57,229 nt of DNA from a virus (IMGVR_UViG_3300031933_000210); one strand, 5' to 3'. Counted from the first letter of the stretch, positions 24,564 through 39,512 are shown. A program made the numbers and translations. The notes: generated from the sequence alone by a model not told the origin.

Positions 24564-24565
24564 GG

Positions 24566-25843
24566 TTATTTGCCCTCAATGCCATTGGCCGCGCGGAATT
24601 CCTGCATCAGGGTCTGCTGACTGGCCTGTTCGTCGTTACCGCCGCCATCGGCGCCGAGTTCGGGGTTGTTCTGACCCATTGCCTGCTCAAAGGCGCTGCC
24701 CTTGCCACCGGCATTCCCTTCGGCCTTGTCGTCCTCAGCGGGCGATGCAGCCAGAATGCCCTTCGCAGAATCAACCGACAGTTCGGTATTCAACGAAAGG
24801 TGGTTTGCCAGGGCACGACGAGTCTTGGCTTCGTCGCAGCCCATGATCCCCTGAATGCGTTCGCGCTCGGCCGTGGCACCTTCTTTCCGGCCCTCGGCGC
24901 GAGCCGCATCCAGATCAGCCTGTGCGGGTGCAGCGGCTTGTTCCGGTGTGCTCATTGTTTCTTCTCCTGCGGTTGGTGACAGTCCGCCAGAGAAGGCGGC
25001 CAGCGCTTCATCGAAGGCTCGGATTTCGTGCGCGAATCCCAGGCTTACCGCTTCCTCGGCACTGTAGGTCAGCGCTTTGGTGTCACGGACCACCTGCTCA
25101 TCGAGCGCGAGATTCCGCGCCACTGTCGATACGAAAATATTGTAGAGGCCGTCGATCCGGGCCTGCATCCGGTTTTTGGCCACATCGGACAAGGGCTCGT
25201 GTGGATTGCCATCGACCTTGTGCTCACCGGCATGGATGAAGGTGATCTTGATGCCGATCTTCTCGTTCCACCCCGACACATCCATGTGCGCAGTGACCAC
25301 GCCGACGCTACCGACGCCACCGGTACGGGTGATCGTGATCTTGTCAGCGACTGACGCCCAAGCGTATGCAGCCGAATAGGCATGCTCATTGACGAAGGCG
25401 TGGATGGGTTTCTCGCCGCGCATCGCAAAGACACGGTCGACCGCATCGAAGCAGCCGGCTACCTCGCCGCCGCCGGAGCTCAGAATCATGGCGATGCGCT
25501 GAACGCTTCCGTCGGCCATGCCGCGCTCGAACGCCTTCTGGATGTAGACGTAGCCGGTTGCCCAGTCATAAAGCTGGTAGCCGAAGTCGTGCAGCAGCAT
25601 GCCCTTGATCGGGATCAGCAGCGTACCGTCCTGGACGATGTACGGGCGGTAGCGCGCCATCCAACTGTCGGCAGCCGGCCAGAAGTCGTCATAGGCCAGG
25701 GCGACAGGTTCGCTGGAGGCGCGAGCCTCGATCGTCTTCAGCTCAGCGGATACCGAGGCGAGGCAATTGCTCATCCAGTCGGCCTTGCAGTCGCTCACCA
25801 TCACCGGTGCGTTCGCGAAGCGCGAGGCCAGCAGGTTACTCAT
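24566..25843 (-). CDS. S49-family prohead protease / scaffold (lambda gpC-like)
   Basis: SSGGGEVAGCFD...AYSAAYAWASVADKI...GGVGSVGVV matches the SppA/S49 core. Ala/Glu-rich C-terminal scaffold-like region. Confidence 0.85.
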   Translation of the reverse strand: MSNLLASRFANAPVMVSDCKADWMSNCLASVSAELKTIEARASSEPVALAYDDFWPAADSWMARYRPYIVQDGTLLIPIKGMLLHDFGYQLYDWATGYVYIQKAFERGMADGSVQRIAMILSSGGGEVAGCFDAVDRVFAMRGEKPIHAFVNEHAYSAAYAWASVADKITITRTGGVGSVGVVTAHMDVSGWNEKIGIKITFIHAGEHKVDGNPHEPLSDVAKNRMQARIDGLYNIFVSTVARNLALDEQVVRDTKALTYSAEEAVSLGFAHEIRAFDEALAAFSGGLSPTAGEETMSTPEQAAAPAQADLDAARAEGRKEGATAERERIQGIMGCDEAKTRRALANHLSLNTELSVDSAKGILAASPAEDDKAEGNAGGKGSAFEQAMGQNNPELGADGGGNDEQASQQTLMQEFRAANGIEGK

Positions 25844-27509
25844 CGGTCTTTTCCTCTTTGTCTTCGCTGCGTGGTCCGTCGCCCGTATCGCTCGGGGTGC
25901 CGCTGGCGGCGTTCATCTGATTCTTGCTGGACTTGTCCGCGCCGAATTCCAGCTCGTGCTTCTCGGCAGCTTTCTTCTCGCGAGCCAGCTGGTTGAACAC
26001 GACGCGCCAATCTTTGCCGAGCTTGGCCAGCTCATCCTCACGGGTGGACAGGCCGTTGTTCACACGCAGGACCGCAGCCTGGGTTTCCTTCAGCTCATCG
26101 ATCTGCCCGGTGCTGGCGCCGATCCACTCGCAGGAGCTGTAAGCCTCCTGATTAAGCCCCTCGTACCAGTTCGGAGCCTTGCGCGGCAGCGAAGTGATCT
26201 CGCCGGAGTTGATCGCCTCCTCCAGCCACAAGCGGTAGAAGGTGCTGGCGAATCGGTCGGCGACCTGGCGCTTCTGCACTCGCATGCGCTTGCCGGTCTC
26301 AGCCATGGCCGCACGCAGGTTCGAGTAGTTGGCGCTGCTGTAATCCTTCGACAGCTGCTCATAGCTGACCCCAAGGGACGCTGCGATGTAGCGCAGCATC
26401 GACGCCTCGAAGTCGGAACCGACGCCACCGGGCGTGCCGGCGTTCTGCAGCTTCATCTTGGTGCCCGGGTAGAACACCGGCACCTTGACGCCATCGAGGC
26501 GGATGTTGCGCGACCCGCCGACGTACTTGGCCACCTCGCCGAGGTAGGTATTGGCAAAGCCGGTCAGCGCTTGCGGGTCGCCGCCGCCGGCCTGTGCCAG
26601 CGCCACATCACTGGGCAGGTCGGATTCGATGCTGGCCGCATAGCTCGCATTGAGCACCGCCGACTGCAGCACGACATCGCGAAACTTCTTGGTCATCCGC
26701 ATCTCTTTCAGCGCGGAGACCATGCTGGCGACGCCGCGGCTCTGATCCGGGCGCCACTGATCGACGATGTGAATCATTTGCGGGCGGTCCCAGCCGGGAT
26801 TGCCGGTGACCTGACCACGAGTGGCCGGAACGAACTTCCAGCTGTAGCCGTCCGGGTTCATCCAGTCGCTCGGATGTGCCTGGCGAATCCAGTAGCCGAT
26901 GGGTGCACCGAACTTGTCCCGCTGCACGCCGCCGCGCAGGGTTGGGCTGTCCATCTCGCCTTGAGGGTTGCTCAGCCGATCAAGGTCCAGCATCTGCAGC
27001 GCAGTGCGGTACGGACGGTAGCCGTTGCGCATCCATTCAACCGACGCCAGGACCTCGCCGGCCATCGCATGGATGCCAACCGCCAGGCGGACCATCCCGG
27101 TGAGTGTCAACTTGCGGGCTGCGTCCGGGAAATTTCGGATCGACTCGGCGTATAGAGTGAACTTGGCTTCGACCTCCTCCTGAAACTCTTCCGCCCAGAC
27201 CTCATCCAGCCCCAGCACCTTGTAGTTCGGCTTGCTGTTGAGCAGGAACATCTCGCCGACGATGGAATCCTTCTGGATCGTCGCGCCGTTCTGGACATAG
27301 GAGTCGTTGCGCAGGGTGTCGCGCACACGGGAATCCATCACCAGCTTGTCCGGGAGGATGTCCATGTCAGCGGACTGCAGCGGGGACGACCACAACGACA
27401 GCTCACGCGAATGGTGGCTGGACGCATCGTAGGCGCCCCGCGCAGCCATCTCCCTGACCGGCAGCTCACCGATCAGGGGGTCGAGATAATCCATGGCGGA
27501 AAGGTCCAT
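25836..27509 (-). CDS. portal protein (lambda gpB type)
   Basis: 557 aa, between the gpW-like protein and the protease. Confidence 0.8.
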   Translation of the reverse strand: MDLSAMDYLDPLIGELPVREMAARGAYDASSHHSRELSLWSSPLQSADMDILPDKLVMDSRVRDTLRNDSYVQNGATIQKDSIVGEMFLLNSKPNYKVLGLDEVWAEEFQEEVEAKFTLYAESIRNFPDAARKLTLTGMVRLAVGIHAMAGEVLASVEWMRNGYRPYRTALQMLDLDRLSNPQGEMDSPTLRGGVQRDKFGAPIGYWIRQAHPSDWMNPDGYSWKFVPATRGQVTGNPGWDRPQMIHIVDQWRPDQSRGVASMVSALKEMRMTKKFRDVVLQSAVLNASYAASIESDLPSDVALAQAGGGDPQALTGFANTYLGEVAKYVGGSRNIRLDGVKVPVFYPGTKMKLQNAGTPGGVGSDFEASMLRYIAASLGVSYEQLSKDYSSANYSNLRAAMAETGKRMRVQKRQVADRFASTFYRLWLEEAINSGEITSLPRKAPNWYEGLNQEAYSSCEWIGASTGQIDELKETQAAVLRVNNGLSTREDELAKLGKDWRVVFNQLAREKKAAEKHELEFGADKSSKNQMNAASGTPSDTGDGPRSEDKEEKTDE

Positions 27510-27727
27510 CAGAACCAGACCCTCCCTGGGCCGACGGAGCCAGCTGGAATGAGCCCCAGCTGCGACTTCAGCGAGTGGATGTAGCCGAGCAGCCTTGAGG
27601 CATTGGCCGGGGTGTAGCGGATCAGCTCGCCGTTCTGGTCGCGGAATTCGGCGACGGATTGGCCGGTCATCAGGCTGTGATATGCCTGCTCGGCTTCTTC
27701 CAACTGACGTTGCAGGTCTACAGCCAT
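27509..27727 (-). CDS. head-tail joining protein gpW-like
   Basis: About 72 aa. LEEAEQAYHSLMTG..V.EF.D.NGE...YT.AN...L..YI..L resembles lambda W. Confidence 0.7.
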   Translation of the reverse strand: MAVDLQRQLEEAEQAYHSLMTGQSVAEFRDQNGELIRYTPANASRLLGYIHSLKSQLGLIPAGSVGPGRVWF

Positions 27728-27808
27728 GCGGCCCCCGACGGCGAATACGGTTCTGTTCGGCCGAATCGTATCAACCATCGGTCGTATATAAAACCGAAAG
27801 TTGATTCG

Positions 27809-29923
27809 CTAAGCGAGCAGAGCCGCCAACTCTTCCAGAGTTTGCCCCTTCGGTTCAGCGATCACACCGGCCTTGCGCTCCTCGGGGAAGAAGACCAGGT
27901 CGTTGTCGCCCCACTCTGCAGCCCATCCCGGTGGGTTGTTCCAGTCCAGGTGCTCGATCTTGATCGGGCGATAGAGCGACAGCGCAATGGCGTACACCAG
28001 CAAGTCCCACGCTTCGTTTCGCGGCGACTTCTTCACCCAGCCGTCGGCATTGCGCACCTCGGCCACCATCTCGGCGAACCACCAGTCAGGGAGCCAGTCG
28101 GGCATATTGATCCGTCCGCCGCCGGCACTCGTGCGATCGAGCATAACGTTCAGCTGGTCCTTGAGGGCCAGCGTGTTGATCATCAGCACCGGAATCTCGC
28201 CTCGCGCGCCGGCACTGCGGTCCTTTCGCTCGGAATCCGGATAGCTGATCTGCACCCGCGGTGCGGTCTTGTTGGAGCCGCCCTTGAGCAGCCTGAAGCG
28301 GTTATGCAGCCCTGCCGGGAACTCGCTGCCATCCGAGTCGCGCAGCATCCGCCAGAACAGGTAGGCGTTCTTGGTCGTCGAGCTGTCGTTCTTCTTGTCA
28401 CCCTTACCCGCCGAGTCGCAGCCCACGACCTTGATCGACATGTGCCGGCCGGAGCCATCAGCCAGGGGGTAAGTCTTGAGGATCACCTGGTCGATGAGCA
28501 GCTTCCAGTCCTCGACATAGGACGCAGGCTTCACCCACTCGCGCTCACCGTCCTCGTCCTTGCGATCGGACTTCTTGATAGCGAAGCGGTCGATGACCGT
28601 GATGTCCCCGCCTTCGCTGAAGCCCATGACCTGGACTTCGAAGCGACCACCTTGCACGTCGACAGCGGCCACCAGGAAGCGCACCCCCTCCGGCACCACT
28701 TTCTCGCCGAGATCGCGCGCCATGGCCTTCACGTCTTCCCAAAGGCGCCCCTCGTCCAAACCCTTCGGCCGGAACGGTAGTCCCTGGTCGGTGTTGACCG
28801 TGGTCTTCAGCGCCTCCTGGCTTCCGGTGCGCTCATACTCCTCGTCCGCCTTCAGGTATTTCAGCGCCAGATCGCGCCAGGTAGTGAACGCGGCAGCAGG
28901 CCCTTTCATCCAGAAGCTGGCGATGTCGGAGCGGAAGGGCAAACCTTCGACCCGGTTCTCCCGCGGCACCCATATCTCACCGTCGCGAACCCACCGGGCA
29001 TTACCCTCGGTGATCTGGTTCAACTCGTTCTTGCCGGGCACGCCATCCTTGCCGTCATGCCAGATGATGCCGGCGCAGTGTGGGCACACCATTACGGTCG
29101 CCTCGGCGGCCTCGACGTGATCCTTCGAATCAGGAATGTGCAGCAGCTTGAAATCGGGCTCGAACGGATTCCTGCAGTGAGGGCACTTCCAGTACCAGCG
29201 GCGACGGTCACCACGGTTGTACAGCGCGAGGATACCCTTCGTCGGCGGCGCCTCATGCGGAGTCTTCGGTACCCACTTGGGGTCCTCGATCTCGTAGCCC
29301 GGGCTCGACTCGGCAACGGTCATCGCGTTGCGGCGGAATGTCTGGCCGCGCTTGGCAGTCAGGTCGTAGGCGTTACCTTCCCCGTCGATGGATTCGTCGA
29401 TGCGGTCATAGTCTGAAATCCAGTTGCGGCCCACGGTCTTACCCGAGAGCTCGCTGATGGTCGGCCACTTGACCAGAAGGTGCATGCCTGACAGGAAGCG
29501 GATCGAGTGGGTGGACTGGTTCTGCCGGCCGGGCGCAACTGTCTTGCCCAGCTCCTTCGAATGGCGAAAGGCCCGGCGAAGGTCCTTCTGGCTCCAGTCG
29601 CGAGCGACGTTCTGCGTCATCAGGACGTGCATCATGTCCGCGGGATCGAAGATCGCCGTATGGCACAGCCAGTTGAAGAACATATCAGACTTCCCCGTCC
29701 GGGCCGGGCCGGCGAAGATCATGCCGAGGTATTCCAAGCTGGTCAGCACCTCCATGGGCTCGACCAGATACGGGGCGATGCTGTTGTCCCAGAAGCCGAC
29801 GTAGCTGCCAGGGTTGTTGAGGTAGCGTGACCGCTCGGCCGCCTGGGCGACCGTCAGGCGTTCTGGAGGTCGGATGCCACCGGCAGACGCTGCGATCATC
29901 TGCTCAAGGGATTCGAAGATCAC
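27809..29923 (-). CDS. terL: terminase large subunit (lambda gpA type)
   Basis: 704 aa. P-loop AGPARTGKS. CPHCRNPF...CPHCAG zinc-finger pair typical of the GpA family. Confidence 0.9.
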   Translation of the reverse strand: MIFESLEQMIAASAGGIRPPERLTVAQAAERSRYLNNPGSYVGFWDNSIAPYLVEPMEVLTSLEYLGMIFAGPARTGKSDMFFNWLCHTAIFDPADMMHVLMTQNVARDWSQKDLRRAFRHSKELGKTVAPGRQNQSTHSIRFLSGMHLLVKWPTISELSGKTVGRNWISDYDRIDESIDGEGNAYDLTAKRGQTFRRNAMTVAESSPGYEIEDPKWVPKTPHEAPPTKGILALYNRGDRRRWYWKCPHCRNPFEPDFKLLHIPDSKDHVEAAEATVMVCPHCAGIIWHDGKDGVPGKNELNQITEGNARWVRDGEIWVPRENRVEGLPFRSDIASFWMKGPAAAFTTWRDLALKYLKADEEYERTGSQEALKTTVNTDQGLPFRPKGLDEGRLWEDVKAMARDLGEKVVPEGVRFLVAAVDVQGGRFEVQVMGFSEGGDITVIDRFAIKKSDRKDEDGEREWVKPASYVEDWKLLIDQVILKTYPLADGSGRHMSIKVVGCDSAGKGDKKNDSSTTKNAYLFWRMLRDSDGSEFPAGLHNRFRLLKGGSNKTAPRVQISYPDSERKDRSAGARGEIPVLMINTLALKDQLNVMLDRTSAGGGRINMPDWLPDWWFAEMVAEVRNADGWVKKSPRNEAWDLLVYAIALSLYRPIKIEHLDWNNPPGWAAEWGDNDLVFFPEERKAGVIAEPKGQTLEELAALLA

Positions 29924-30606
29924 TCGGAGGAGCCCTCACTGCCCTCTGGGGCAGCACCCTCTTCCGCGATCGACGGTAGCGTCTTGCCGCTCTTCGGCGC
30001 CTCCACCATCAGGTGGTAGACGTTCTCCAGCAAGCGGTCAGTGAGCTGGGTGATCAGCAGACGCTGTTCAGGCGTCAGGCCCTCGATCCGCTCCACCTCC
30101 TCCACCCAGAGGTTGGCCGTCGTCTTGAACGAGATGGCAAGGTCACCGAACACCTTCAGCACATCCTCGCTGCGCCAGAGATCGCGGGCGTTTTCCTCCC
30201 ACTTCTGCCGCTTGATCATCGCCGACCAGTAGGCATCGTTGAGCATCGGCGGCAGGTCATTCGGGCGCAGCGTCTTGATATACGCGACGAGATCGACTTT
30301 GGGCTTCACCAGATACGCGGCTGCGTCGGGGATGCGGTACAGCGGCCCGCCGTTTCGACGGCCAACGACTTCGCAGCCGGCGCTGGCGAGCTTCTTGGCG
30401 ATGGTGTTCTTGTCGTGACCGAAAACCTGGGCGAGCCAGCTGGCGCTAACGCCGCCGTAGACATCCGCCAGGGCGGTGCTGATCGGTTCCAATGACTCCT
30501 CATCTGCAGCCGGCACCGAGCCAATCAGGTCGTCGTCATCGATCTCGACCGGAGGCTTGGCCTTTGGTGGTCTGCCGCGTCTCTTGGGCGCCGTTTTTGG
30601 GGCCAT
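29920..30606 (-). CDS. terS: terminase small subunit
   Basis: 4-nt overlap with terL. Basic N-terminus (KRRGRPPKAK) and an HTH-like region. Start chosen at MAPKTAP. Confidence 0.65.
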   Translation of the reverse strand: MAPKTAPKRRGRPPKAKPPVEIDDDDLIGSVPAADEESLEPISTALADVYGGVSASWLAQVFGHDKNTIAKKLASAGCEVVGRRNGGPLYRIPDAAAYLVKPKVDLVAYIKTLRPNDLPPMLNDAYWSAMIKRQKWEENARDLWRSEDVLKVFGDLAISFKTTANLWVEEVERIEGLTPEQRLLITQLTDRLLENVYHLMVEAPKSGKTLPSIAEEGAAPEGSEGSSE

Positions 30607-30622
30607 GGTTATCTCCGGAATA

Positions 30623-30639
30623 ATCAACCAACGGTTGAA
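30623..30639. promoter_or_regulatory. TTCAACC-family motif, palindromic form (ATCAACCAACGGTTGAA)
   Basis: Fills the 35-nt gap between the methyltransferase stop and the terS Shine-Dalgarno sequence and ATG. Confidence 0.65.
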
Positions 30640-30641
30640 AC

Positions 30642-31727
30642 CTAGATCAAAGGATCAAGCTCGATCAGATCAGCTCGTCCAACTCCACGCTCGATGTCGA
30701 GGAACGCGCCGATGAACTGGGTCGCCGCTTCCGCGTTGATCGCGTTTCCGTAGGCGCGCAATCGCACCACTCGGCTGGCAGCCCCATGAGCCAGCGGGAA
30801 TGTGCCGGATTCAACTGGCCGCCACTTTCCGTCCCGGCAGCTGAGCCAGTCAGCATCTCGCCAGATACCGTTAACCGCGCCGGGCCTATCAGTTGCACTT
30901 GGTGTGGCAGGCATGTCACCGAGTTTCCGCAGCTGACCTTCTCCTTCCGTGCTAGCGCCTGATCCGGCGTCCCTCCGGGAGTATTTGCCGTTGGCGTCTG
31001 CCAGCCCACCAACGTGAATGCCTGCTCGCTCAGAGGCTTCCCCCGACTCTGCTCCAGCCTCTGCTCCAGCCTCTGCTCCAGGAACTCCGTGGAGGCGGAT
31101 GCGCTCTTCCAGTCTCGAGCTGAAGGCGTTGCCCAAGAGGCGAACTGAGCAACTGCTGTCAGTTCCGGCTTCGGCGCGCCGTCCTTGCGATACCCCGGTA
31201 AGCCCCGCGAATCCGACGCTGTCGCTGTCGGCCACCCAGAACAATCTGTCACGGATGTGCGGAGCACCGACGCCCGCAGACGGAAACGGGACACCCCCGA
31301 AGGCGTAACCCAGGGCTTCCAGGTCAGCTTGTACAAGGTCGACCCAAGGCTCGACAGCCTTGCCTGCAACCTGCTCTCCAAAGAGGACTGGAGGGCGGCA
31401 CTGCTGGATGAGCCAATGGAAGTCTGGCCATAGGTGCCGCTCGTCAGCAAACCCTTCTTGCGCGCCTGCGCTGCTGAAAGGCTGGCACGGGCAGGAACCG
31501 GTCCAGACTGGACGGGAATCGTCCCAACCAGCTCGTCGTAGGGCGTATGACCAGACACCGATACCGGCGAAGAAGTGACACTGGGTGTAGCCGCGCAGAT
31601 CGTCTGGAGAGACATCGCTGATGCTCCTTTCATCGACATCGCCTGGGGCGATCAGACCTCGGGCGATAAGGTTGCGGAGCCACTGGGCAGCTTGCTTGTC
31701 GATTTCGTTGTAGTAGGCACGCGCCAT
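30642..31727 (-). CDS. DNA (cytosine-5)-methyltransferase
   Basis: FAGIGVWS (motif I-like), PCQPFS (IV), GEQV (VI), APHIRDRLFWV (VIII) and C-terminal LRAYGNAI (X). N-terminal AYYNEIDK...WLRNLI. Start chosen at MARAYYNE. Confidence 0.85.
   Translation of the reverse strand: MARAYYNEIDKQAAQWLRNLIARGLIAPGDVDERSISDVSPDDLRGYTQCHFFAGIGVWSYALRRAGWDDSRPVWTGSCPCQPFSSAGAQEGFADERHLWPDFHWLIQQCRPPVLFGEQVAGKAVEPWVDLVQADLEALGYAFGGVPFPSAGVGAPHIRDRLFWVADSDSVGFAGLTGVSQGRRAEAGTDSSCSVRLLGNAFSSRLEERIRLHGVPGAEAGAEAGAESGEASERAGIHVGGLADANGKYSRRDAGSGASTEGEGQLRKLGDMPATPSATDRPGAVNGIWRDADWLSCRDGKWRPVESGTFPLAHGAASRVVRLRAYGNAINAEAATQFIGAFLDIERGVGRADLIELDPLI
30665..31615 (-). CDS. overprinted +1-frame ORF inside the methyltransferase gene (WxTP-repeat protein)
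   Basis: The frame is open from 31639 to 30665. AAGGAG lies 8 nt upstream of the ATG at 31615. Contains GWPTATASD, SWATPSARDW, GWQTPTANTPGG and LNPAHSRWLMGLPAEW. Has its own ELDELI-TGA end. Confidence 0.5.
   Translation of the reverse strand: MSLQTICAATPSVTSSPVSVSGHTPYDELVGTIPVQSGPVPARASLSAAQARKKGLLTSGTYGQTSIGSSSSAALQSSLESRLQARLSSLGSTLYKLTWKPWVTPSGVSRFRLRASVLRTSVTDCSGWPTATASDSRGLPGYRKDGAPKPELTAVAQFASWATPSARDWKSASASTEFLEQRLEQRLEQSRGKPLSEQAFTLVGWQTPTANTPGGTPDQALARKEKVSCGNSVTCLPHQVQLIGPARLTVSGEMLTGSAAGTESGGQLNPAHSRWLMGLPAEWCDCAPTETRSTRKRRPSSSARSSTSSVELDELI
31047..31081. repeat. 12-bp tandem repeat (CTCTGCTCCAGC, about 2.9 copies)
   Basis: Read directly from the sequence. Gives GAEAGAEAGAE in the methyltransferase frame and RLEQRLEQ in the +1 frame. 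Confidence 0.9.
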
Positions 31728-31784
31728 AACACTGCTCGCATGAGGCTCGTAAAGGCGCCATCGTACCAACCGCACGAGTGACTA

Positions 31785-31801
31785 TTCAACTATTGGTTGA
31801 A
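31785..31801. promoter_or_regulatory. TTCAACC-family motif, palindromic form (TTCAACTATTGGTTGAA)
   Basis: Lies between the endolysin stop and the methyltransferase start. Confidence 0.7.
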
Positions 31802-31803
31802 TC

Positions 31804-32352
31804 TCAGATCACGACACGGGCGCGGACCCAGCCGTAGAGGAATGTCCTCTGGTCAGAGTCGTGCTCGGTGAGTTCGAGGTACCGGTTGCCCTGGGTACAG
31901 TTGAGGGCACGAAGCAGGACCCCCTCGCCTTCCCGGCCACGCTTCGCGAGGAAACGATCGAGCGCGTTGAGGCTGATATCGCCAATGCGGCCATCCACGA
32001 ACAGGTCGTCATAACCGCTGCCCGGTAAATTGAAGCCATTCAACCAGCGCTGCAGGAACTCAGCGGCTCGGTGCGGCCCCATGTTCACTCCGGTGTCGAC
32101 CAGTTCCTCGCCGATGAGCGTGGAGCGCAGCAGCACCTTATCGAACCTGGGCTCGACGACGAAGCGGTTGCGGTAGATGTGCTCGGCCAGGGTTCGCGGC
32201 ATGTCGCGCATGTCACCCTGGTAGCCGTTGGCGCGGGCGACGGCACGGGTGATCCCGTACATCGTCTCACCGCCGCGGTCGGACTTGTGATTCGAATACC
32301 GGCCCTCTGCGTCGATGACCGCTGCGATGATGTTGTCGATCTGCTTGCTCAT
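31804..32352 (-). CDS. endolysin, GH108-type muramidase with a PG_binding_3-like C-terminus
   Basis: IDAEGRYSNHKSDRGGETMYGIT matches the EGGY.nhp.D.GG.T..GIT signature of GH108. Start chosen at MSKQID. Confidence 0.8.
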   Translation of the reverse strand: MSKQIDNIIAAVIDAEGRYSNHKSDRGGETMYGITRAVARANGYQGDMRDMPRTLAEHIYRNRFVVEPRFDKVLLRSTLIGEELVDTGVNMGPHRAAEFLQRWLNGFNLPGSGYDDLFVDGRIGDISLNALDRFLAKRGREGEGVLLRALNCTQGNRYLELTEHDSDQRTFLYGWVRARVVI

Positions 32353-32364
32353 GGCGCCACTCAC

Positions 32365-32380
32365 GGTTGAATACTCAACC
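32365..32380. promoter_or_regulatory. TTCAACC-family motif, half-sites in everted order (GGTTGAATACTCAACC)
   Basis: Lies 13 nt upstream of the endolysin ATG on the minus strand. Confidence 0.55.
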
Positions 32381-32423
32381 AACCGTACTTGTGGCCGCGG
32401 AACCTGTCGACGCGATATTCGAC

Positions 32424-33077
32424 TCAGTGCTTGTCGGTGACCAGCTTCCAGCGATCCTCGCCCGTATAGTAGTGCGTGCCCGACTCCTTCACTTCAACGG
32501 CCAGGTAGCCGCCACGGCGCACGCCGTGTTTCTCGATGAGATCGTGAGGCATGTGAATGAAGCGTATGTCGAACGGACCTTTCGGGATTGCACCGATCAC
32601 AGCGCAACGCTCGTATTCGTTGGGAATATAGAAGCGTAACAGGCCAGCCTCCACTGTTTGCGCGGTCGCAACATGGTAATAGGTCTGGGTACCCTCGCGG
32701 ATGCTGTGAAAACTGACGAACTCAGCCAGGGGATCACCCTCGGCTGGGAAGGCGCAGGTGCCGCCATTGAGCTGCACAAGTCCCATGAAAACGTTAACTG
32801 CACCGGCCATCTGGGCGCTGTGCTGCTTACGCTCTTTCACTTCCATGTTGGGCGTGATGCCCAGCGCCAACCACGATTCGTCAACACCGAGAACCTTGGC
32901 GAGCTTACCCATCATGCTGGGGCGCGGACGCGAACCTGCGAACCACTTGCGCACGGCCTCGGCGCTCACACCCATCTCATCCTTGAGCCATGTCTGGCGG
33001 CCTTTGCCGAATGTCGGAACTCGACTGTTGCCGTCGCATGCCACCTTCAGCCGGTTGGCGAATCCTAAATCGGCCAT
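32424..33077 (-). CDS. XRE/CI-like repressor (HTH N-domain, non-peptidase C-domain)
   Basis: N-terminus FANRLKVA...MGVSAEAVRKWFAGSRPRPSMMGKLAKVLGVDESWLALG is a classic HTH_3 domain. No S24 Ser-Lys signature is seen in the C-terminal 130 aa. Confidence 0.7.
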   Translation of the reverse strand: MADLGFANRLKVACDGNSRVPTFGKGRQTWLKDEMGVSAEAVRKWFAGSRPRPSMMGKLAKVLGVDESWLALGITPNMEVKERKQHSAQMAGAVNVFMGLVQLNGGTCAFPAEGDPLAEFVSFHSIREGTQTYYHVATAQTVEAGLLRFYIPNEYERCAVIGAIPKGPFDIRFIHMPHDLIEKHGVRRGGYLAVEVKESGTHYYTGEDRWKLVTDKH

Positions 33078-33153
33078 GGTTTTCCCCCTCCTTCGGGTTT
33101 ATCGACAGCGTGTCGGCCACACGCGCGGTAGCACTCGGTGGCCGAAACCGCTA

Positions 33154-33233
33154 TTCAACTATCTGTTGACTTGATGTTGAACTATCCAACAACGGTGTCA
33201 ATTCTTTTTTGCGTAAATTGACAAACATTCAAC
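33154..33233. promoter_or_regulatory. operator/promoter region upstream of the repressor gene
   Basis: Cluster of TTCAAC/GTTGAA half-sites (33154, 33165, 33176, 33185, 33228) plus an 8-bp inverted repeat TGTCAATT-N12-AATTGACA (33196-33223). Confidence 0.55.
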
Positions 33234-33258
33234 AGAAAGGGGGATATTGACCGCCAGG

Positions 33259-34728
33259 TCACACTACCTCCCTGTACTTCGTCGCCTCGACGAGCGCGTC
33301 TTGGAGTGCATCTTTTTCAGGCAGAACGGTCATTACCCGCTCATCGACCGTACCCTCGGCAACGATATGGTGAATTACAACCGTTTCCTTCTGGCCTGGA
33401 CGGTGAAGACGCTTATTCAACTGTTGGTAGTATTCGAGACTCCAGCAGAGGCCGTACCAGACGGTGATGCAACCACCGTACTGCAGGTTCAATCCGTGAC
33501 CAGCGGACTGCGGGTGCGCCAGCAGGATGGAAATTTCGCCGTTGTTCCAGCGCTTCTGCAGGTTCGGCGCCTCGCCGACGACCTCAGCCTTCGGGTAGCG
33601 CTTGCGCAGCTTCTCCAGGTCGAACTGGTAGCTGTAGGCGACCAGAACCGGCGCCCCGTTGGCCTCCTCGATCACGCTGTCCAGGGCATCGAGCTTCAGT
33701 GAGTGGATTTCGATGACGTTGCCGTCCTCGTCGTAGACCGAGCCGTTGGCCAGCTGCAGCAACTTGCCGGTCAGCACACCCTCGTTCACCGCCTCGATGT
33801 CATGCTCTTCGAGCAGCATGGTCTTCTCGAACTTGCGGTACTGGGCCATCACCTTCGGTGGCAGCTTCACACGGATCGTGTTGTGGATGACCGGCGGCAT
33901 GTCGACGTAATCCTCCGTCTTCATGCTCAGGGTGATGTCCTGAATGCGCTCGACGATCTGCTCAAACGCACCCGGCCGCGGTGTATAGCGGTAGCCCATG
34001 TAGTCGCTATCGAACCAGCGAGTGCGGTACTGGTTGAAGCTGCCATACAGTCGCTCGCCCTGATCCAGCAGATAGAACTGGCTCCAGATGTCCAACAGGC
34101 CGTTGGGCGACATGGTTCCGGTGAGCCCGATGACACGCAGGATGCGCTTGCGCACGCTGCACAGCGCCCCGAACCGGGTCGGATTACCCTTCACCTTCTT
34201 GACCGCCTTCTTGACCGCGGCGTCAATCTGCTCGTCCGTCAGCCCTTTCGGCAGCTCGCGCATCGCTTCGTCCATGGCTTTCTGAACCGCCACCTTGGTT
34301 GGCTTGGTCTTCTTCGACGGATTCTTGAAACGCGAGATTTCGTCGATGCACACCAAGTCGTAGGGCCAGTCATCTCCCCAGAATTCGACCAGCCAGCCGA
34401 CGTTCTCGGTGTTGATAATGCTGATCTCGGGCAGCCTACGGGCGCGCTGCTCACGCCGGTCAGGTGGACCGGTCAACACCTCGTAGTCGAGCACGCTGGT
34501 GTGCTCCCACGCATCGATCTCATCGGGCCAGGTCTCCTCGGCCACCAGCAGCGGCGCGATCACCAGGATGTGGGTGACCTGGAAGGTGTCCAGCAGCTCG
34601 CGGAACGCTGTCAGCGCTGTGCCGGTTTTCCCCAGCCCCATCGCCATCCCCAGCATGCACGCAGGGTTCTCGACGATCTTCTTCACGCCCACCAGCTGGC
34701 TGTGCCGCAGGTCATCGAGCTTACGCAT
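33259..34728 (-). CDS. SNF2-family DNA helicase/translocase
   Basis: GLGKTG (Walker A), CIDEISRFKN (DExx box) and LLAHPQSAGHGLNLQ (helicase-C motif). Confidence 0.85.
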   Translation of the reverse strand: MRKLDDLRHSQLVGVKKIVENPACMLGMAMGLGKTGTALTAFRELLDTFQVTHILVIAPLLVAEETWPDEIDAWEHTSVLDYEVLTGPPDRREQRARRLPEISIINTENVGWLVEFWGDDWPYDLVCIDEISRFKNPSKKTKPTKVAVQKAMDEAMRELPKGLTDEQIDAAVKKAVKKVKGNPTRFGALCSVRKRILRVIGLTGTMSPNGLLDIWSQFYLLDQGERLYGSFNQYRTRWFDSDYMGYRYTPRPGAFEQIVERIQDITLSMKTEDYVDMPPVIHNTIRVKLPPKVMAQYRKFEKTMLLEEHDIEAVNEGVLTGKLLQLANGSVYDEDGNVIEIHSLKLDALDSVIEEANGAPVLVAYSYQFDLEKLRKRYPKAEVVGEAPNLQKRWNNGEISILLAHPQSAGHGLNLQYGGCITVWYGLCWSLEYYQQLNKRLHRPGQKETVVIHHIVAEGTVDERVMTVLPEKDALQDALVEATKYREVV

Positions 34729-34996
34729 AGGGAACCCCCAGAATACGCAGAGCGGCTGTCGGCACGTCTACGACATGCACCTCGGCGCCGGCCGCACGGA
34801 ACAGGTCGATCTCACGCTGCTGAGTGGCCCGCGGCTTGCCGTCCGGACGCTTGAATTCAATCAGCACGATGCGCCCCTCTTTCAGGAAGAAGCGGTCCAT
34901 GCCGTTGCGCCGGCCGATCCAGCGCAGCTTCCGGACGATCCAGCCGGCAGCTTCGGCTCTCTCGCATACCAAGTCCTCAATTGGGCTCTCGATCAT
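34721..34996 (-). CDS. VRR-NUC domain nuclease
   Basis: GMDRFFLKEGRIVLIEFKRPDGKPRATQ fits the D..(D/E)xK core of VRR-NUC. The ATG at 34996 follows the TTCAACCA motif. Confidence 0.7.
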   Translation of the reverse strand: MIESPIEDLVCERAEAAGWIVRKLRWIGRRNGMDRFFLKEGRIVLIEFKRPDGKPRATQQREIDLFRAAGAEVHVVDVPTAALRILGVPYA

Positions 34997-34997
34997 T

Positions 34998-35023
34998 GGT
35001 TGAATACTCACTAGGTGGTTGAA
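34998..35023 (-). promoter_or_regulatory. TTCAACC-family motif, 19-bp-phased direct repeat abutting the start codon
   Basis: Minus strand reads TTCAACCAcctagtgagtaTTCAACCAATG. Confidence 0.65.
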
Positions 35024-35030
35024 AACGCAG

Positions 35031-37016
35031 TCAAATCAGATGGTCCAGCTTTGCGTCCCACTGGTAGGCTGGATGGCCAACGTCGCGCATGATCGAGACG
35101 GCCTCGCGCGCATACCAGCTCAGGTCCACGTCAGTGGGGAACTCCTCGGGTAGGTCCATCAGCGGCACTGCGCCGCGAGACCGGGAAACGGTGTTGCTGT
35201 TGATCTTGTAGCGGATGTCCCGGGTCTCGCCGATGCCGTAGTACCAGCGCACGGCCTTGCCGAGGTACCGCGCGTTCTTCAGCTGTGCCTGGGTGACGTG
35301 CTTGTAGGCTTCGTCTCGGCTGAGCGCCAGCGTGTAATCCTCGTTGGTCCAGGTCCCCGGCTCCGGCCACTCGAACCAGCCCTCGCGCTCCAAGACAGCC
35401 TTCTTCTCGGCGACCTTGGCCTTGGGGTCGAACTCGCAGTGCCCATATACCGCCCCGCCGTTGACCTGGCGCACCGTCACGAACTTGGTGATGTCCTTGC
35501 AGGCCGCCAGCGTGGCCTCCACCGGCACACCCTTGGTCAGTGCGTCGACTGCTGCCTGGATCGCGATCTGGTTGGCGGGGTTCTTCTGCAGACCGGGTTC
35601 GGCGAAGGCGCCCTTGAGCTTGACCTTGCCGTCGGTCTTCACAGCGATGTAGTTGTTCACGTCGCGGCTGTAGAGCGCGCTGTACTGCGTTTCCTCGGTC
35701 TCGAACGTGGTGCGGCGCTCCCATTCGGCGACGATTGCGTTCAGGTCGTCCAGATGATCCTTCGGGCACTTGATCACTACGCCGTCGGTGTTGGCGCTGA
35801 CCACGGAGATGCCGGCCCCCTCGATCATCTCGATGAGCATCAGCAACGCCAGCTGGCCGGTGATCGTTACCTGGATCATCAGGTGCGGCGAATACAGGCA
35901 CGACCACTTGGAGCCGAACTTGCCGAACGATCCGTTGATGGTGATCTTCAGCGAGTCGGCGGTGACCTTGTCGCCAGCACGCTTGGCTGCCAGGCGCCGG
36001 TCGACGATCGACTTGTAGACCTTGAGAAAGGCGGGTCCGAGGTGCTTGGGGTACAGGCCCTGACCGAGGATGATCGCCGGGTAGTAGCTGGCCACGTCGC
36101 GGTCGATCAGAAGGGTGTCGTCGTCGGCGATATGGGTGACCGAGCTTTCGCTGGAGTGCAGCCCGCCGATCCCCATGCGGTAGATCGAGCCACCCATCAC
36201 GACCTTTGCATCAGAGAGCTCATCAGGCATCGCCACGCTGCCGTTGCTCTCGACGACGAACTTCGCGTTGCGCACCATCTCCAACACTTCGAGCATCACG
36301 GGCGTGGTGTAGCTGATGAAATCCGGTACCCGATAATTGAAGCTGGTGCCGGCCGGGAACTTCGGCCGCTCAGGGCGCACACCGCTCAGCCGCTCCAGCT
36401 GACTCTTGATCACCGCCTCGGCAATCTGGGCATCGGACTTGGAGCGCAGGTCCATGCCGTACTCTTCGGACATCCGCTCACGCAGCTCCAGCTGTTTGAT
36501 CAGCCCGGTGCGCAGGTCTTTGGTGGCGTTCAGGTCGTTGCCGTTGTAGGAGACCAGCTGCGGGCGAAGCTCGGGGGTGATCGAGGCGTCAGGCTCCACC
36601 GGCAGGTCCTGCATGCGCTGGGTATGGACCCGGCCGCCGTAGATTTTTAGGCTGGCCTGCCCGGGCGCCACCTCGATCAGGTCGATGTGGTCGATCTTGG
36701 GGATGCGGACGCCGAAGGTGCGCTCGAACTCCCAAGGCTTGAGGTTCTGCTGGATGATTGCATCGCTGGCGCGCTTGAGCTGGATGTTGCTCACCCCCTG
36801 CAGCGCGTAGTAGACCATCGGGATATCGTAGGTCGCCCCGTTGAACGTGATGATCTGGCAGAGCCGGAGCACCTTGGCGAGCAGTTCGCGATCGAGGCTC
36901 ACCCCATCGTACTGCTCAAACACGAGCGTGTTGCCCGTCTCGATGTTGCGCACGCCGACTTCGAAATAGTCCCTATACGTCTCCACATCGAGTACCACTG
37001 TTTTTTTAGTATTCAT
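35031..37016 (-). CDS. family-B DNA polymerase with an N-terminal 3'-5' exonuclease
   Basis: VLDVETY (Exo I), DVASYYPAII (motif A), KITINGSFGKFG (motif B) and SANTDGV (motif C). Confidence 0.8.
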   Translation of the reverse strand: MNTKKTVVLDVETYRDYFEVGVRNIETGNTLVFEQYDGVSLDRELLAKVLRLCQIITFNGATYDIPMVYYALQGVSNIQLKRASDAIIQQNLKPWEFERTFGVRIPKIDHIDLIEVAPGQASLKIYGGRVHTQRMQDLPVEPDASITPELRPQLVSYNGNDLNATKDLRTGLIKQLELRERMSEEYGMDLRSKSDAQIAEAVIKSQLERLSGVRPERPKFPAGTSFNYRVPDFISYTTPVMLEVLEMVRNAKFVVESNGSVAMPDELSDAKVVMGGSIYRMGIGGLHSSESSVTHIADDDTLLIDRDVASYYPAIILGQGLYPKHLGPAFLKVYKSIVDRRLAAKRAGDKVTADSLKITINGSFGKFGSKWSCLYSPHLMIQVTITGQLALLMLIEMIEGAGISVVSANTDGVVIKCPKDHLDDLNAIVAEWERRTTFETEETQYSALYSRDVNNYIAVKTDGKVKLKGAFAEPGLQKNPANQIAIQAAVDALTKGVPVEATLAACKDITKFVTVRQVNGGAVYGHCEFDPKAKVAEKKAVLEREGWFEWPEPGTWTNEDYTLALSRDEAYKHVTQAQLKNARYLGKAVRWYYGIGETRDIRYKINSNTVSRSRGAVPLMDLPEEFPTDVDLSWYAREAVSIMRDVGHPAYQWDAKLDHLI

Positions 37017-37557
37017 GCGATGAACCAACACCATTATTCGAGAATTCGCGATGGAGACGAAGCCTCGCAGCTTTAACCGCGTTCTCAGCATTCAACTTGT
37101 CCGCGAAATAACCTAAATTCCGGTTCCGCCCGTTTACGCAAATAATCGCCATCCACTTCCCGTAACGCTTGTACCACTGGACACCTTTAACTCCTGAGGT
37201 GTTATCGGAGCGGAGTAAGGCGTTTCTGGCGTTTTCAGCCAGGGTGGCCAGTCTCATGTTGCTAGGCTGGTTATTGAGTTTGTTACCGTCTATATGATCG
37301 ATCCGGTAGCCATAAGGGATCGACCCGTTGCGCATAATCCAAAGCAGGCGATGAACTAGCCAACGCTCCTTCTTGAAACCCACCTGGAGATAGCCTTGTG
37401 TATTCTGGCAAGTCACTTCTCCAATCGCGCGCCCCCCTAGACCCGGCAGCCAGCGAACGGTGTGCCCTACATCCTCAAACGCAGCCAGTAGTTCACAGCG
37501 GCTCGGCTCAGTACGCATAGTCATGGCCGGCATACCCTCTAGCTTCTTCACTTTCAT
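37006..37557 (-). CDS. HNH (HNH_3) + AP2-domain homing endonuclease
   Basis: VHRLLW...IDHIDGNKLNNQPSNMRL...N plus SGVKGVQWYKRYGKWMAIICVNGRNRNLGYF. Lower GC than its flanks. Overlaps the polymerase start by 11 nt. Confidence 0.8.
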   Translation of the reverse strand: MKVKKLEGMPAMTMRTEPSRCELLAAFEDVGHTVRWLPGLGGRAIGEVTCQNTQGYLQVGFKKERWLVHRLLWIMRNGSIPYGYRIDHIDGNKLNNQPSNMRLATLAENARNALLRSDNTSGVKGVQWYKRYGKWMAIICVNGRNRNLGYFADKLNAENAVKAARLRLHREFSNNGVGSSHEY

Positions 37558-37558
37558 T

Positions 37559-37584
37559 GGTTGAATACTCACCCATTGGTGGAA
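37559..37584 (-). promoter_or_regulatory. TTCAACC-family motif, 19-bp-phased direct repeat abutting the start codon
   Basis: Minus strand reads TTCCACCAatgggtgagtaTTCAACCAATG. Confidence 0.6.
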
Positions 37585-37609
37585 AAAAAGGGCGCCGAAG
37601 CGCCCTTTC
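37582..37609 (-). terminator. Rho-independent terminator after the SSB-like gene
   Basis: Stem AAAGGGCGC/GCGCCCTTT, loop of 4 nt, T7 tract on the minus strand. Confidence 0.75.
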
Positions 37610-37622
37610 TGCGGGGTTTGAC

Positions 37623-38219
37623 TCAGATCATGTCGTCGTCTTCGTCGTCCAGATCGTCGAGGTAGTCGTCGGCATCGACAGCGCCGGCGCCGAACGGCTC
37701 ACCGTCGCGACGGAAGCGCACCAGCTCGATGGACGCGAACACACCGTTGCCACCCTTGTCCTTGTCGGTGACCGAGTAGACGCTGACAACAGCATCCACA
37801 TAGCAGCCGCCGTAGATAATGCCGTCTTCCTCGACGGTCGGGCTCTTGTCGCGCTTGAGGACCTGCGGCCGGCGCTTTTCCGGCGAGCTGGCCTGGACGT
37901 ACATCATGTCCTCGTAGCCCGCGTAGACATCACCCTCGGCATTGGTAGCCTTGTTACCGTCGCGCAGCGGCTTACGGTCCCACTCGATGTTGTTGAAGAT
38001 TTTCTCAGCCTTGTCCGCCCAGGTCTTGCCCTTGACGTGCTCGATGGCAGCGTTGATGGCTTTGATGTTCGCCTTGCCCTCGGCAGTCTCCGGATCGATC
38101 AGGAATGCAGCGCTGAACTTGGGCGCCGAGGTGTCGGTGGACTTCTCGGCCTTGAACAGTTTCGGGAAGGACAGGCGGACGTTTTTCAGTACGGCGATAT
38201 CGGGACGTGCAGTTGCCAT
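37623..38219 (-). CDS. ssDNA-binding protein, T7 gp2.5-like (DUF2815-like)
   Basis: Position between the exonuclease and the polymerase. Family resemblance is from memory. Strongly acidic tail DDYLDDLDDEDDDMI. Confidence 0.6.
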   Translation of the reverse strand: MATARPDIAVLKNVRLSFPKLFKAEKSTDTSAPKFSAAFLIDPETAEGKANIKAINAAIEHVKGKTWADKAEKIFNNIEWDRKPLRDGNKATNAEGDVYAGYEDMMYVQASSPEKRRPQVLKRDKSPTVEEDGIIYGGCYVDAVVSVYSVTDKDKGGNGVFASIELVRFRRDGEPFGAGAVDADDYLDDLDDEDDDMI

Positions 38220-38234
38220 GTTGTGTTTCCTCGG

Positions 38235-39512
38235 TCAGATCAGATCGTCGAATTCATCGACTTCAGGTTGAATCTCGTCAGCAGCGACCAGGTCGTCATC
38301 GTCGTCCAGATCGTCCAGCAGGCTGAGGATTGGGATCAGCGCCTCGCGCTTGTCGCTTTCCGGTACCAGTGCCGGCTTGCCTTCCGGCCGATGGATTAAC
38401 TCCTGGGCAGCCTTCCAGTTGCGCGTACCGGCGGCCGACTCCATCTGTGCTGGGCTTTTCAGCCGCTGCGTGTAGATGGCCTTGGCTGGCATCTTGGCCT
38501 TCCAGAACTCTTCCGCCTCAGCTTCGTTGACCCAGGTGCGATCACCGAGCGTGGCGACAGCCTTGAACCCAGGAACAGGCAACCCTTTGAGCGCATCGTC
38601 CAGCGCCGCGGCATGCAGGTTGTTGACCCAGCTGGTGATCAGCGACTTGTGCTCCAGCACGTAGCTGCGGCGCTCAGGGGTGAGGCTCGCGTGTGCAGTC
38701 AATTCAGGTTTCCTCCTGCGGTCGGCGTCCAGGCTCTCTAGGTCGATACCCAGCAAGTCGAGGACGAATTGATCCAGCGCGTAGCAGGCCGAGTTGCGTG
38801 CTGCCCGGCAGAATCGGCACCCTTTCGGGCTCGGTTTAAGTGGCGCATCCGGGTCCAGCGTGGCGATTGCCGCAGCAGCGACCTCCTCGGCGAACACCAA
38901 AAGCTCGTCGAGCGTGGTGTACCACTCACTGCCTCCACCGGAGACACGCGGTTGGTCGATGCGCAACAGGAAGCGTGTGGCCTTCGTTCGGTGTCTGGCG
39001 TAGTTCATCCAGAAACCGAGCGCGTAGATCATCATCTGCTTGTTGCGCTCAGCATCTACGGTCACACCGCGGCCGAATTTCAGGTCGTCGATGGTGATCA
39101 GGTCGTCAGAGATGCCGCCGGCATCCAGCGTCCCGAAGCCACCTTCGATCCACGGGTCCATCTCGACCCGGTGTTCAAAGACCCATTCAGCTTTCGCCTC
39201 GCGGATGCGGTCGATACCAGGCTGCAGCCAGCGCACCCACTCGTCAGTCACCTCGAAGAACAGCCCATCGGCCTCGATCTTCTCGCCAACCAGAGCGTCG
39301 ACATCGATTCCTTCATTCAGGCAACGCTCGCGCACGGTGTGTGCTGCGGTACCTTCGCTGGAGAACTCACTACTCTCCTCGGGGAAGCGCTCTTCCATCC
39401 GCGGCTTGCCCGGACAGACCATCCACCCTTCGGCATCCGATGGGCTCAGCCGGTGATGCGCGGCGATGGCAGCTGCGATCGGGGTGCGATCTATTGGTTG
39501 GTGTGCAGTCAC
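38235..39512 (-). CDS. PD-(D/E)XK / Cas4-like exonuclease (DUF2800-like)
   Basis: HHRLSPSDAEGWMVCPG N-terminal signature, IDDLKFGRG, and a C-terminal CRFCRA...C cluster. GTG at 39512 with a GGAGAGGG Shine-Dalgarno sequence (alternative ATG at 39629). Tail EFDDLI. Confidence 0.65.
   Translation of the reverse strand: MTAHQPIDRTPIAAAIAAHHRLSPSDAEGWMVCPGKPRMEERFPEESSEFSSEGTAAHTVRERCLNEGIDVDALVGEKIEADGLFFEVTDEWVRWLQPGIDRIREAKAEWVFEHRVEMDPWIEGGFGTLDAGGISDDLITIDDLKFGRGVTVDAERNKQMMIYALGFWMNYARHRTKATRFLLRIDQPRVSGGGSEWYTTLDELLVFAEEVAAAAIATLDPDAPLKPSPKGCRFCRAARNSACYALDQFVLDLLGIDLESLDADRRRKPELTAHASLTPERRSYVLEHKSLITSWVNNLHAAALDDALKGLPVPGFKAVATLGDRTWVNEAEAEEFWKAKMPAKAIYTQRLKSPAQMESAAGTRNWKAAQELIHRPEGKPALVPESDKREALIPILSLLDDLDDDDDLVAADEIQPEVDEFDDLI

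Follow-up and report, generated by a model that had tools for sequence, protein, structure and literature searches.

Genomic setting

The window considered here is the whole 57,229-nucleotide stretch of viral DNA IMGVR_UViG_3300031933_000210, which derives from a temperate siphovirus of the Casjensviridae type. Dispersed over its 57 kb are approximately 30 copies, mainly intergenic, of a palindrome, TTCAAC-N4/5-GTTGAA. The product of gene g37, a regulator with a helix-turn-helix (HTH) domain, is proposed to bind it. The closest deposited phage is Achromobacter phage vB_AchrS_AchV4 (AchV4), with which the terminase DNA is 73% identical and 25 proteins are held in common. The gene map was produced with a simple script of our own, is crude, and was annotated with Pfam and PHROGs. 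The relatives compared include 20-kb loci around g37 homologues (L103, L106, L107, L108, L109 and L112), and several relatives were read over 50 kb only.

From 40.3 kb downwards, the minus strand encodes an Ala/Lys-rich protein, a DUF2800 nuclease, an Enc34-type single-stranded DNA-binding protein (SSB), an HNH protein, DNA polymerase, a VRR-NUC protein, an SNF2 helicase and g37. Beyond g37, the same strand continues with a GH108 endolysin, a C5 methyltransferase, terS, terL, the portal, head and tail genes and a holin. The plus strand from 40.4 kb carries a Cro/YdaS-like HTH gene, a second small HTH gene, a primase, many small genes, an HU-like gene, RdgC, an Arc-like gene and a stand-alone LytTR domain. 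The genes that bear on regulation are:

944-1219, plus strand: excisionase/PrtN-like gene
1196-2350, minus strand: integrase gene
32424-33077, minus strand: g37, XRE/HTH_3 regulator of 217 aa
40443-40715, plus strand: Cro-like gene
46452-46724, plus strand: HU-like gene
53435-53698, plus strand: Arc-like gene
54828-55175, plus strand: LytTR gene

Abundance and arrangement of the palindrome

The palindrome occurs far above expectation throughout the window. Five exact copies of TTCAAC-N4/5-GTTGAA were found against 0.00 expected from 100 shuffles, and 28 copies of the N5 form with no more than two mismatches against 1.19. A palindromic matrix, built on the 12 best copies and applied with a cut-off of 10 bits, returned 33 sites where 1.6 are expected in random sequence. 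The centres of 25 of these 33 lie in intergenic DNA, which makes up 13% of the window (binomial p = 3e-16), and the remainder are mostly within approximately 40 nt of a gene end. Of the intergenic gaps of at least 25 nt, 22 of 36 hold a site.

Both the enrichment and the intergenic bias had been proposed in an earlier sequence-only reading, and both are borne out by these counts. The copies listed there are all present to within one base, with corrected positions of 5050-5066, 40717-40733 and 55400-55416. That list was true but incomplete, as approximately 15 more copies are present, including those at 10621, 14315, 23020, 24770/24789, 27770/27789, 33416, 34988/35007, 37549/37568, 40427, 46398, 47913, 48727/48958/49216, 50168 and 54123. 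The distance from site to start codon, previously put at 15-85 nt, was measured as approximately 0 to approximately 150 nt.

The ideal half-site is the 7-mer TTCAACC, so that a perfect site reads TTCAACC-N3-GGTTGAA. The proposed operator is 17 bp long and its half-sites are separated by one helical turn. The main regularity absent from the sequence-only reading is a direct repeat of TTCAAC at exactly 19 bp, for which 15 exact pairs and 33 pairs with one mismatch were counted in eight related genomes. No other spacing gave more than two exact pairs, or more than six with one mismatch, in the same genomes. In the window, six pairs of full-length matrix hits are spaced by 19 bp. The tandem unit is thus a 17-bp operator, 2 bp and a second operator, the last half-site of which is usually given over to the ribosome-binding site. 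A reading of the 19-bp direct repeat as a promoter of the extracytoplasmic function (ECF) sigma type was rejected, the spacing being approximately 4 bp too short.

The g37 protein and its putative promoter

The g37 protein matches Pfam HTH_3 (E = 1.6e-7) and phrog_2967, a transcriptional regulator. Its HTH has profile matches to 434 repressor, 434 Cro and P22 C2, and the 434 and P22 repressors bind palindromes of comparable size. An AlphaFold2 model (predicted local distance difference test score 85) contains one HTH and a C-terminal alpha/beta domain. Foldseek matched this domain to Hjc and I-Ssp6803I (E = 3e-3 to 1e-2, probability of approximately 1.0, TM-score of approximately 0.5 on the target). 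The catalytic D...(D/E)xK of PD-(D/E)XK nucleases is not conserved in the g37 family, the Asp of strand 2 being Ser in the window protein and its closest relatives. The domain is for this reason tentatively read as an inactive nuclease fold that may serve dimerisation.

The gene lies 7 kb from the divergent early switch at 40.3-40.4 kb and is oriented as the replication genes are. Its putative promoter region runs in the order of a conserved A-tract with TTGACA, a weak -10 and then GTCAACAGATAGTTGAA:

33154-33170: operator O1, sense strand GTCAACAGATAGTTGAA
33176-33181: additional half-site
33196-33201, minus strand: conserved -35 TTGACA of the putative g37 promoter, with a weak -10 (AACATC)
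33227-33243: weak second site O2, approximately 74 bp upstream of O1, with one half conserved only

The extra half-sites that had been noted before the CI-like HTH gene are real. Four phages share the O1 sequence exactly, although identity among their g37 proteins is only 62-93%.

The g37 family comprises 45 clusters in 5.8 billion sequences. Homologues were found only in genomes with an integrase or tyrosine recombinase gene and are missing from the three integrase-less relatives examined. The RcD phages of Rhodobacter have been reported to form lysogens (PMC8601537).

Co-occurrence of motif and g37 in related phages

Among the DNA-binding proteins of the window, only g37 is represented by a homologue in each phage that bears the motif. 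The sequence of its recognition helix, S-x-EAVRKWF, hardly varies. Changed helices occur in the homologues of AH2 (EGVRKWF) and RcPescado (ETVRKWN), and these two phages show weak or no enrichment of the motif, in keeping with g37 as the binder. Of the 13 related phages and prophages with g37 that were checked, whose named hosts include Achromobacter, Klebsiella, Pseudomonas and Marinobacter, 11 are enriched for the motif core. Whole-genome 6-mer z-scores were too insensitive to detect the motif in relatives, and a dyad count on intergenic DNA worked. The copies of TTCAAC-N5-GTTGAA with no more than two mismatches are as follows, with the core CAAC-N5-GTTG counted in the last two phages:

AchV4: 28 observed, 2.0 expected
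Klebsiella phage N133: 19 observed, 1.4 expected
L103: 12 observed, 0.5 expected
L106: 6 observed, 0.35 expected
L107 (prophage, Pseudomonas stutzeri): 9 observed, 0.4 expected
L108: 10 observed, 0.5 expected
L109: 10 observed, 0.4 expected
L112: 13 observed, 0.3 expected
Pseudomonas phage SS2019XI, core: 10 observed, 0.8 expected
Marinobacter phage PS6, core: 12 observed, 1.5 expected

The outer bases differ in SS2019XI and PS6 (ATCAAC and TACAAC). Positions of sites are conserved before the major tail gene (four phages) and after the endolysin, capsid and Cro-like genes. In the g37-less controls Enc34, Chi and BcepNazgul, the helicase gene abuts terS. Enc34 has two motif matches against 2.25 expected, Chi has three against 1.85, and the eight in BcepNazgul all lie within genes, with none intergenic. 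Judged by these comparisons, the motif is a property of the clade and is not confined to this phage. An exact-motif scan of the IMG/VR collection, which did not contain this window, was uninformative, with 94 single scattered matches and no multi-copy contig.

Burkholderia phage BcepNazgul (L100) has a 15-bp dyad of its own, CGGAAGTWACTTCCG, for example at 6321, 41119 and 48760. Approximately 20 copies with no more than three mismatches are present, three of them perfect and many in genes.

Sites in promoters and at the divergent switch

Ten sigma-70-like promoters were predicted in the whole window, all called as consensus matches only, and the motif lies inside six of them. The 17-mer fills the 18-nt spacer in four, and the right half of the site forms the -35 in two:

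883-899: site filling the spacer of TTGCCA/TATACT (876-905), ahead of the excisionase/PrtN-like gene
2949-2965: site filling the spacer of TTGACC/TAGGAT (2942-2971)
52328-52364: extra half-site at 52328 and perfect site at 52348-52364, the latter filling the spacer of TTGATA/TAACAT (52342-52371) ahead of rdgC
55400-55416: perfect site filling the spacer of TAGACA/TATACT (55393-55422)
44958-44974: site in a divergent gap, its right half forming the -35 TTGACA of the predicted promoter at 44970-44999
47424-47469: four half-sites (47424, 47445, 47456, 47464), with a full site at 47445-47461 whose right half forms the -35 TTGAAT of the predicted promoter at 47457-47485

A dimer bound in the spacer or over the -35 would thus be expected to exclude RNA polymerase. 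The same geometry recurs at the divergent switch:

40327-40343: strong operator; the leftward early promoter takes its -35 TTGACA (40326-40331, minus strand) from the GTTGAC half
40302-40307, minus strand: -10 of the leftward early promoter, TTGACA-18-TTCAAT
40389-40394 and 40413-40418: -35 TTGCGC and -10 TAGAAT of the rightward promoter
40427-40443: weak operator TTCTAC-N5-GATGAA, 8 nt past the rightward -10 and overlapping the start codon of the Cro-like gene

The weak operator, given here as read on the plus strand, takes the form TTCATC-N5-GTRGAA in the relatives. When the switch (40246-40442) was aligned in five phages, namely the window and four relatives, the hexamers and both operators were found to be kept and the flanks to diverge.

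The leftward early operon is headed by g44 (39559-40245, minus strand), which encodes an Ala/Lys/Glu-rich, low-complexity protein and is followed by a terminator-like hairpin at 39513-39558. The possibility that g44 is a hidden CI was rejected, as the Ala/Lys-rich product has no HTH and no family or structure match. A strong intrinsic terminator, GGGCGCTTCGGCGCCC followed by T7, stands at approximately 37587-37612 on the minus strand, right after the SSB gene, and is kept in L103, L106, L107 and L108. The polymerase gene and all genes downstream of it therefore need read-through or antitermination.

Sites between genes and near start codons

The remaining sites are as follows:

2697-2732: tandem pair (2697-2713, 2716-2732) with a 19-bp period, in the region upstream of the integrase gene
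5031-5066: tandem pair (5031 and 5050), upstream of the holin-like gene 4605-4970
10621-10637: degenerate site among the tail genes
14315-14331: site 50 nt ahead of gene 13278-14264, lying in the 3'-terminal part of the gene before it
21130-21146: site separating the minor-tail and major-tail genes, its position kept in AchV4, N133 and SS2019XI
23020-23036: site past the major capsid gene, its downstream half AGGTGA also being the Shine-Dalgarno; the position is also occupied in L103, L107 and L108
24770-24805: weak tandem pair within the prohead-protease gene
27770-27805: tandem pair before the gpW-like gene, with the ATG inside the second operator
30623-30639: site 16 nt upstream of terS
31785-31801: perfect site in the endolysin/methyltransferase gap, with orthologous sites after the endolysin gene in L103, L106, L107 and L108
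32365-32380: everted half-sites GGTTGAATACTCAACC in the gap of g37 and the endolysin gene
33416-33432: site in the 3' part of the helicase gene
34988-35023: tandem pair before the VRR-NUC gene, start context TTCAACCAATG
37549-37584: tandem pair right after the SSB-gene terminator, before the HNH/polymerase gene
40717-40733: site in the gap between the Cro-like and the next HTH gene, kept in L103, L106, L107 and L108
46398-46414: degenerate site and third half-site, ahead of the HU-like gene
47913-47929: start-proximal site, with a third half-site 19 bp further
48727-48743: start-proximal site TTCAACCATCAGAGGAA, in which the Shine-Dalgarno replaces the downstream half
48958-48974: second copy of the 48727 leader
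49216-49232: third copy of the 48727 leader
50168-50184: degenerate start-proximal site
54123-54139: start-proximal site, 9 nt before the ATG

The pair at 24770-24805 may reflect coding-sequence homology, since relatives match at the same position. Start-proximal sites in co-directional gaps end 0-25 nt before the ATG. In eight genomes, 43 such sites show 55 mismatches in the upstream half, which is well kept, and 98 in the downstream half, which is degenerate and often doubles as the Shine-Dalgarno (GGTGA, GGAG). A distance of 1-25 nt to the ATG, often with the Shine-Dalgarno inside the site, leaves no room for a promoter. The start-proximal sites consequently lie within transcripts, a position that fits a roadblock and not an activator.

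Several observations concern the genes next to these sites. The near-identical leaders TTCAACCATCAGAGGAATTATCAAC(A/C)ATG precede three small open reading frames (ORFs) at 48727-48755, 48958-48986 and 49216-49244, and the ORF behind the first leader, which starts at 48751, was missed by the gene finder. The three look like a tandem gene family. The C5 methyltransferase gene (30642-31727, minus strand) is an insertion relative to L103, where the same leader runs directly into terS; it is flanked by the motif at 31785 and 30623. The HNH-AP2 ORF (37006-37553, minus strand) shares its leader and first codons, ATGAAAGTGAAG, with the DNA-polymerase gene of L103 (L103:6063), which has no HNH. On this sequence match, the 5' end of the polymerase gene seems to have been the insertion point of an HNH-AP2 endonuclease.

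Proposed mechanism and alternative explanations

With moderate confidence, the pattern of sites and relatives points to g37 as a dimeric global repressor that blocks promoters and probably obstructs transcription inside operons. A g37 dimer would bind the 17-mer operators. At promoter sites it would exclude RNA polymerase from both early promoters, the excisionase-like gene, the rdgC unit and the accessory units, and the site at its own promoter would provide autoregulation. The intergenic sites of the co-directional replication, lysis, packaging, head and tail block would act as single or cooperative-tandem roadblocks to read-through in the prophage, in the manner of stoperators. Roadblock action within operons is the weakest step of this scheme; it is suggested because the intra-operon sites cannot be promoters and because there is a precedent in mycobacteriophage L5. 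Of the roles raised in the sequence-only reading, an operator recognised genome-wide by one dimeric phage regulator is the best supported, with the CI-like HTH_3 protein g37 as the binder; the LytTR, Arc-like and Cro-like candidates named alongside it are less likely.

A number of findings weigh against a g37 repressor. Fourteen of the 36 gaps of at least 25 nt have no site. The g37-bearing loci L110 and L111 are too short or weak for enrichment to be made out, and little or none is seen in AH2 and RcPescado. No Peptidase_S24 match was found in g37 with Pfam, so the classical self-cleavage domain of CI is missing. As the last gene of the early operon, g37 immediately precedes the lysis and packaging genes, which in lambda is the position of the late regulator Q. 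Half-sites in co-directional gaps favour the sense strand by 79 to 37 (p = 1e-4), which a simple symmetric dimer does not predict and which could point to a role in mRNA. The TACAAC half-sites of PS6 are likewise 15 sense and 0 antisense, and a strict test of outer-dinucleotide orientation in PS6 and SS2019XI, with few sites, gave p = 0.7. The 2:1 excess of sense-strand TTCAAC can be ascribed to the tandem operators, the fourth half-site of which yields to the ribosome-binding site. Finally, the Cro-like gene adjoins the divergent switch with its two sites, and its product is a possible second binder.

That the Cro-like protein reads the motif, either by itself or at operators shared with g37 after the pattern of Cro and CI, is nonetheless considered unlikely. 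It has a YdaS/HTH match, and a small gene occupies its position beside the primase gene in all relatives examined. Set against this, its putative recognition helix varies among phages that share the motif core (SNQYVYRWI, SPWAIYRWI, HPNHLHVAM and SNSYAYKAM), and it is only 16-18% identical to its counterparts in SS2019XI and PS6. Enc34 and Chi, with no motif enrichment, still have an annotated small regulator gene beside the primase gene, matched by position. It is slightly less probable again that g37 activates late genes, or combines this with early repression like phi29 p4, the late-gene sites then being activator sites. Such a role would suit a gene that closes the leftward early operon and is directly followed by endolysin, terS and structural genes, many of the late genes being preceded by sites. 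It would also suit the lack of any predicted sigma-70-like promoter on the minus strand of 20001-40000, which encodes the whole packaging, head and tail block. The start-proximal sites, 1-25 nt from the ATG and often holding the Shine-Dalgarno, leave no promoter room, while sites in the spacer or -35 of predicted promoters have the geometry of a repressor. The co-occurrence of g37 with integrase genes also speaks against a late activator.

An element acting in mRNA, whether a hairpin or a sense UUCAACC word near the ribosome-binding site that controls translation, processing or stability, is improbable. The sense-strand bias and the many sites that touch or contain the Shine-Dalgarno would be in keeping with it, although the bias can be explained by the tandem operators as described above. 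The hairpin proposed in the sequence-only reading finds no support in the predicted RNA stems, which are weak (-0.5 to -7.5 kcal/mol) and have no T-run, and it cannot form where the Shine-Dalgarno replaces one half. No Rfam match was obtained, and none of the predicted terminators coincides with a site. The promoter-embedded copies lie upstream of the predicted start and so are not transcribed from those promoters. It is the sequence rather than the pairing that is kept, in phages of four host genera. A compensatory-change test of the stem was not used, as the selection of sites made double core changes impossible.

Recognition by a host protein or by another phage regulator (LytTR, Arc-like, PrtN-like or HU-like) is very improbable. 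The genes for all four regulators are present in the window, and the LytTR family binds direct repeats such as the 19-bp repeat found here, but LytTR repeats usually have a period of 21-22 bp. No homologue of any of them is present in the complete AchV4 genome, nor in the searched parts of N133, SS2019XI and PS6. The LytTR, Arc-like and PrtN-like proteins are disfavoured because AchV4 bears the motif and has no homologue of them; the second small HTH protein of the window likewise has no homologue in the complete AchV4 genome. A host factor is unlikely because the hosts span Achromobacter, Klebsiella, Pseudomonas and Marinobacter and because g37-less relatives on similar hosts are without the motif. 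To our knowledge, none of the host operator consensuses (FNR/CRP, ArgR, IHF, PsrA, LexA) fits TTCAAC-N5-GTTGAA. There is just as little likelihood that the copies are mainly short homology tracts for the exchange of gene modules. The methyltransferase and HNH insertions relative to L103 are each flanked by motif copies, and to this extent the recombination boundary suggested in the sequence-only reading may be a side effect at most. At 17 bp the tracts are very short for homologous exchange, which moreover leaves unexplained the register with the -35/-10 hexamers, the palindrome, the 19-bp tandems and the conserved operator at the g37 promoter.

A single near-perfect LexA/SOS-type box, TACTGTATGGACAACCAGTA, is present at 56837-56856, in a 58-bp divergent gap without a TTCAAC site. 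The gap is flanked by small ORFs at 56575-56826 (minus strand) and 56885-57229 (plus strand, running off the window), to which no function was assigned. In SS2019XI, too, a small gene is preceded, at 17 nt, by a similar LexA-type box (L098:36914). The sole unit of the window with such a box is thus among the few without an operator. It may, as speculation, be an SOS-controlled antirepressor module and so a release route for g37; it is put no more strongly because approximately 0.25 such matches are expected by chance on our own estimate.

A wider and decidedly more tentative proposal extends the repression by g37 to a strategy of the group. Temperate Casjensviridae-like phages of Proteobacteria may possibly have evolved whole-genome silencing by a repressor that combines an XRE HTH with a dead nuclease. 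Its dimers would occupy almost all intergenic gaps as tandems with a 19-bp period, oriented one way with respect to transcription. Both initiation and read-through would be stopped over the lytic block of approximately 36 kb of co-directional genes, and relief would come from a separate SOS-controlled module and not from self-cleavage.

Comparison with known systems

If g37 binds the motif, the silencing of a whole prophage genome through dispersed repressor sites would have evolved independently a second time. This would then occur in phages of Gram-negative bacteria, including phages of Pseudomonas, Klebsiella and Achromobacter considered for therapy. The immunity determinant and specificity of the clade would be defined, and the silence of replication, lysis and structural genes that all run in one direction would be explained. 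The phage would also supply a compact set of approximately 30 natural operators of graded strength, and a new repressor architecture (an HTH with a nuclease-like dimerisation fold) for study and engineering. Prophages of the group would be recognisable by the motif alone. The motif is not described in the papers on AchV4 or the RcD phages, and a literature search on both hexamers returned unrelated papers only.

The sequence-only reading had noted that twelve or more near-identical operators would far exceed those of classical lambdoid switches. Such a number is not unprecedented, as Cluster A mycobacteriophages have more than 20 dispersed sites for their repressors (L5 gp71 and the TipsytheTRex repressor), in promoters and in short intergenic gaps (PMC9283540). 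Each of these sites is an asymmetric 13-mer that a repressor monomer recognises with its two DNA-binding domains, and site orientation is tied to transcription (PMC9283540). The likeness to L5 lies in the number of dispersed sites (33 here), in their placement in promoters and in short intra-operon gaps, and possibly in a bias relative to transcription. In the present phage this bias is the 79 to 37 of half-sites on a symmetric core, which can follow from tandems over the ribosome-binding site. The proposed purpose is also alike, namely prophage silencing by blocking initiation and elongation, the block to elongation being only proposed here. In contrast to L5, the site is palindromic and 17 bp long and is often repeated in tandem at 19 bp, the hosts are Proteobacteria, and the g37 model has one XRE HTH and a nuclease-like fold. 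A profile search of PDB sequences with g37 (E <=1) gave XRE-type HTH proteins only and no mycobacteriophage repressor, and Pfam and PHROGs gave HTH_3 and phrog_2967 only.

With the lambdoid phages (lambda, 434 and P22), the present system has in common the type of HTH, palindromes of 14-18 bp over the -35/-10 of divergent early promoters, adjacent tandem operators and an operator at the repressor's own promoter. It differs in that its sites, approximately 30 in number, are dispersed, where the lambdoid phages have six within a single immunity region. A further difference is the repressor gene, which closes the replication operon 7 kb away from the switch and encodes a C-terminal PD-(D/E)XK-like fold and no S24 domain.

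In Streptomyces phage phiC31, 17-bp conserved inverted repeats (CIRs) occur in many intergenic places and are bound by isoforms of the phage repressor. They differ from the present motif in sequence, in the family of the repressor and in the phylum of the host. Cluster K mycobacteriophages carry conserved, short start-associated sequences just upstream of many start codons; here, by contrast, the distance to the start varies (0-25 nt and more) and the same palindrome is also found in promoter spacers. Genome-wide dispersed repressor sites are a known principle, represented by the stoperators of L5 and the repeats of phiC31, and the palindrome of this phage is most likely a new form of it, with a different protein and site.

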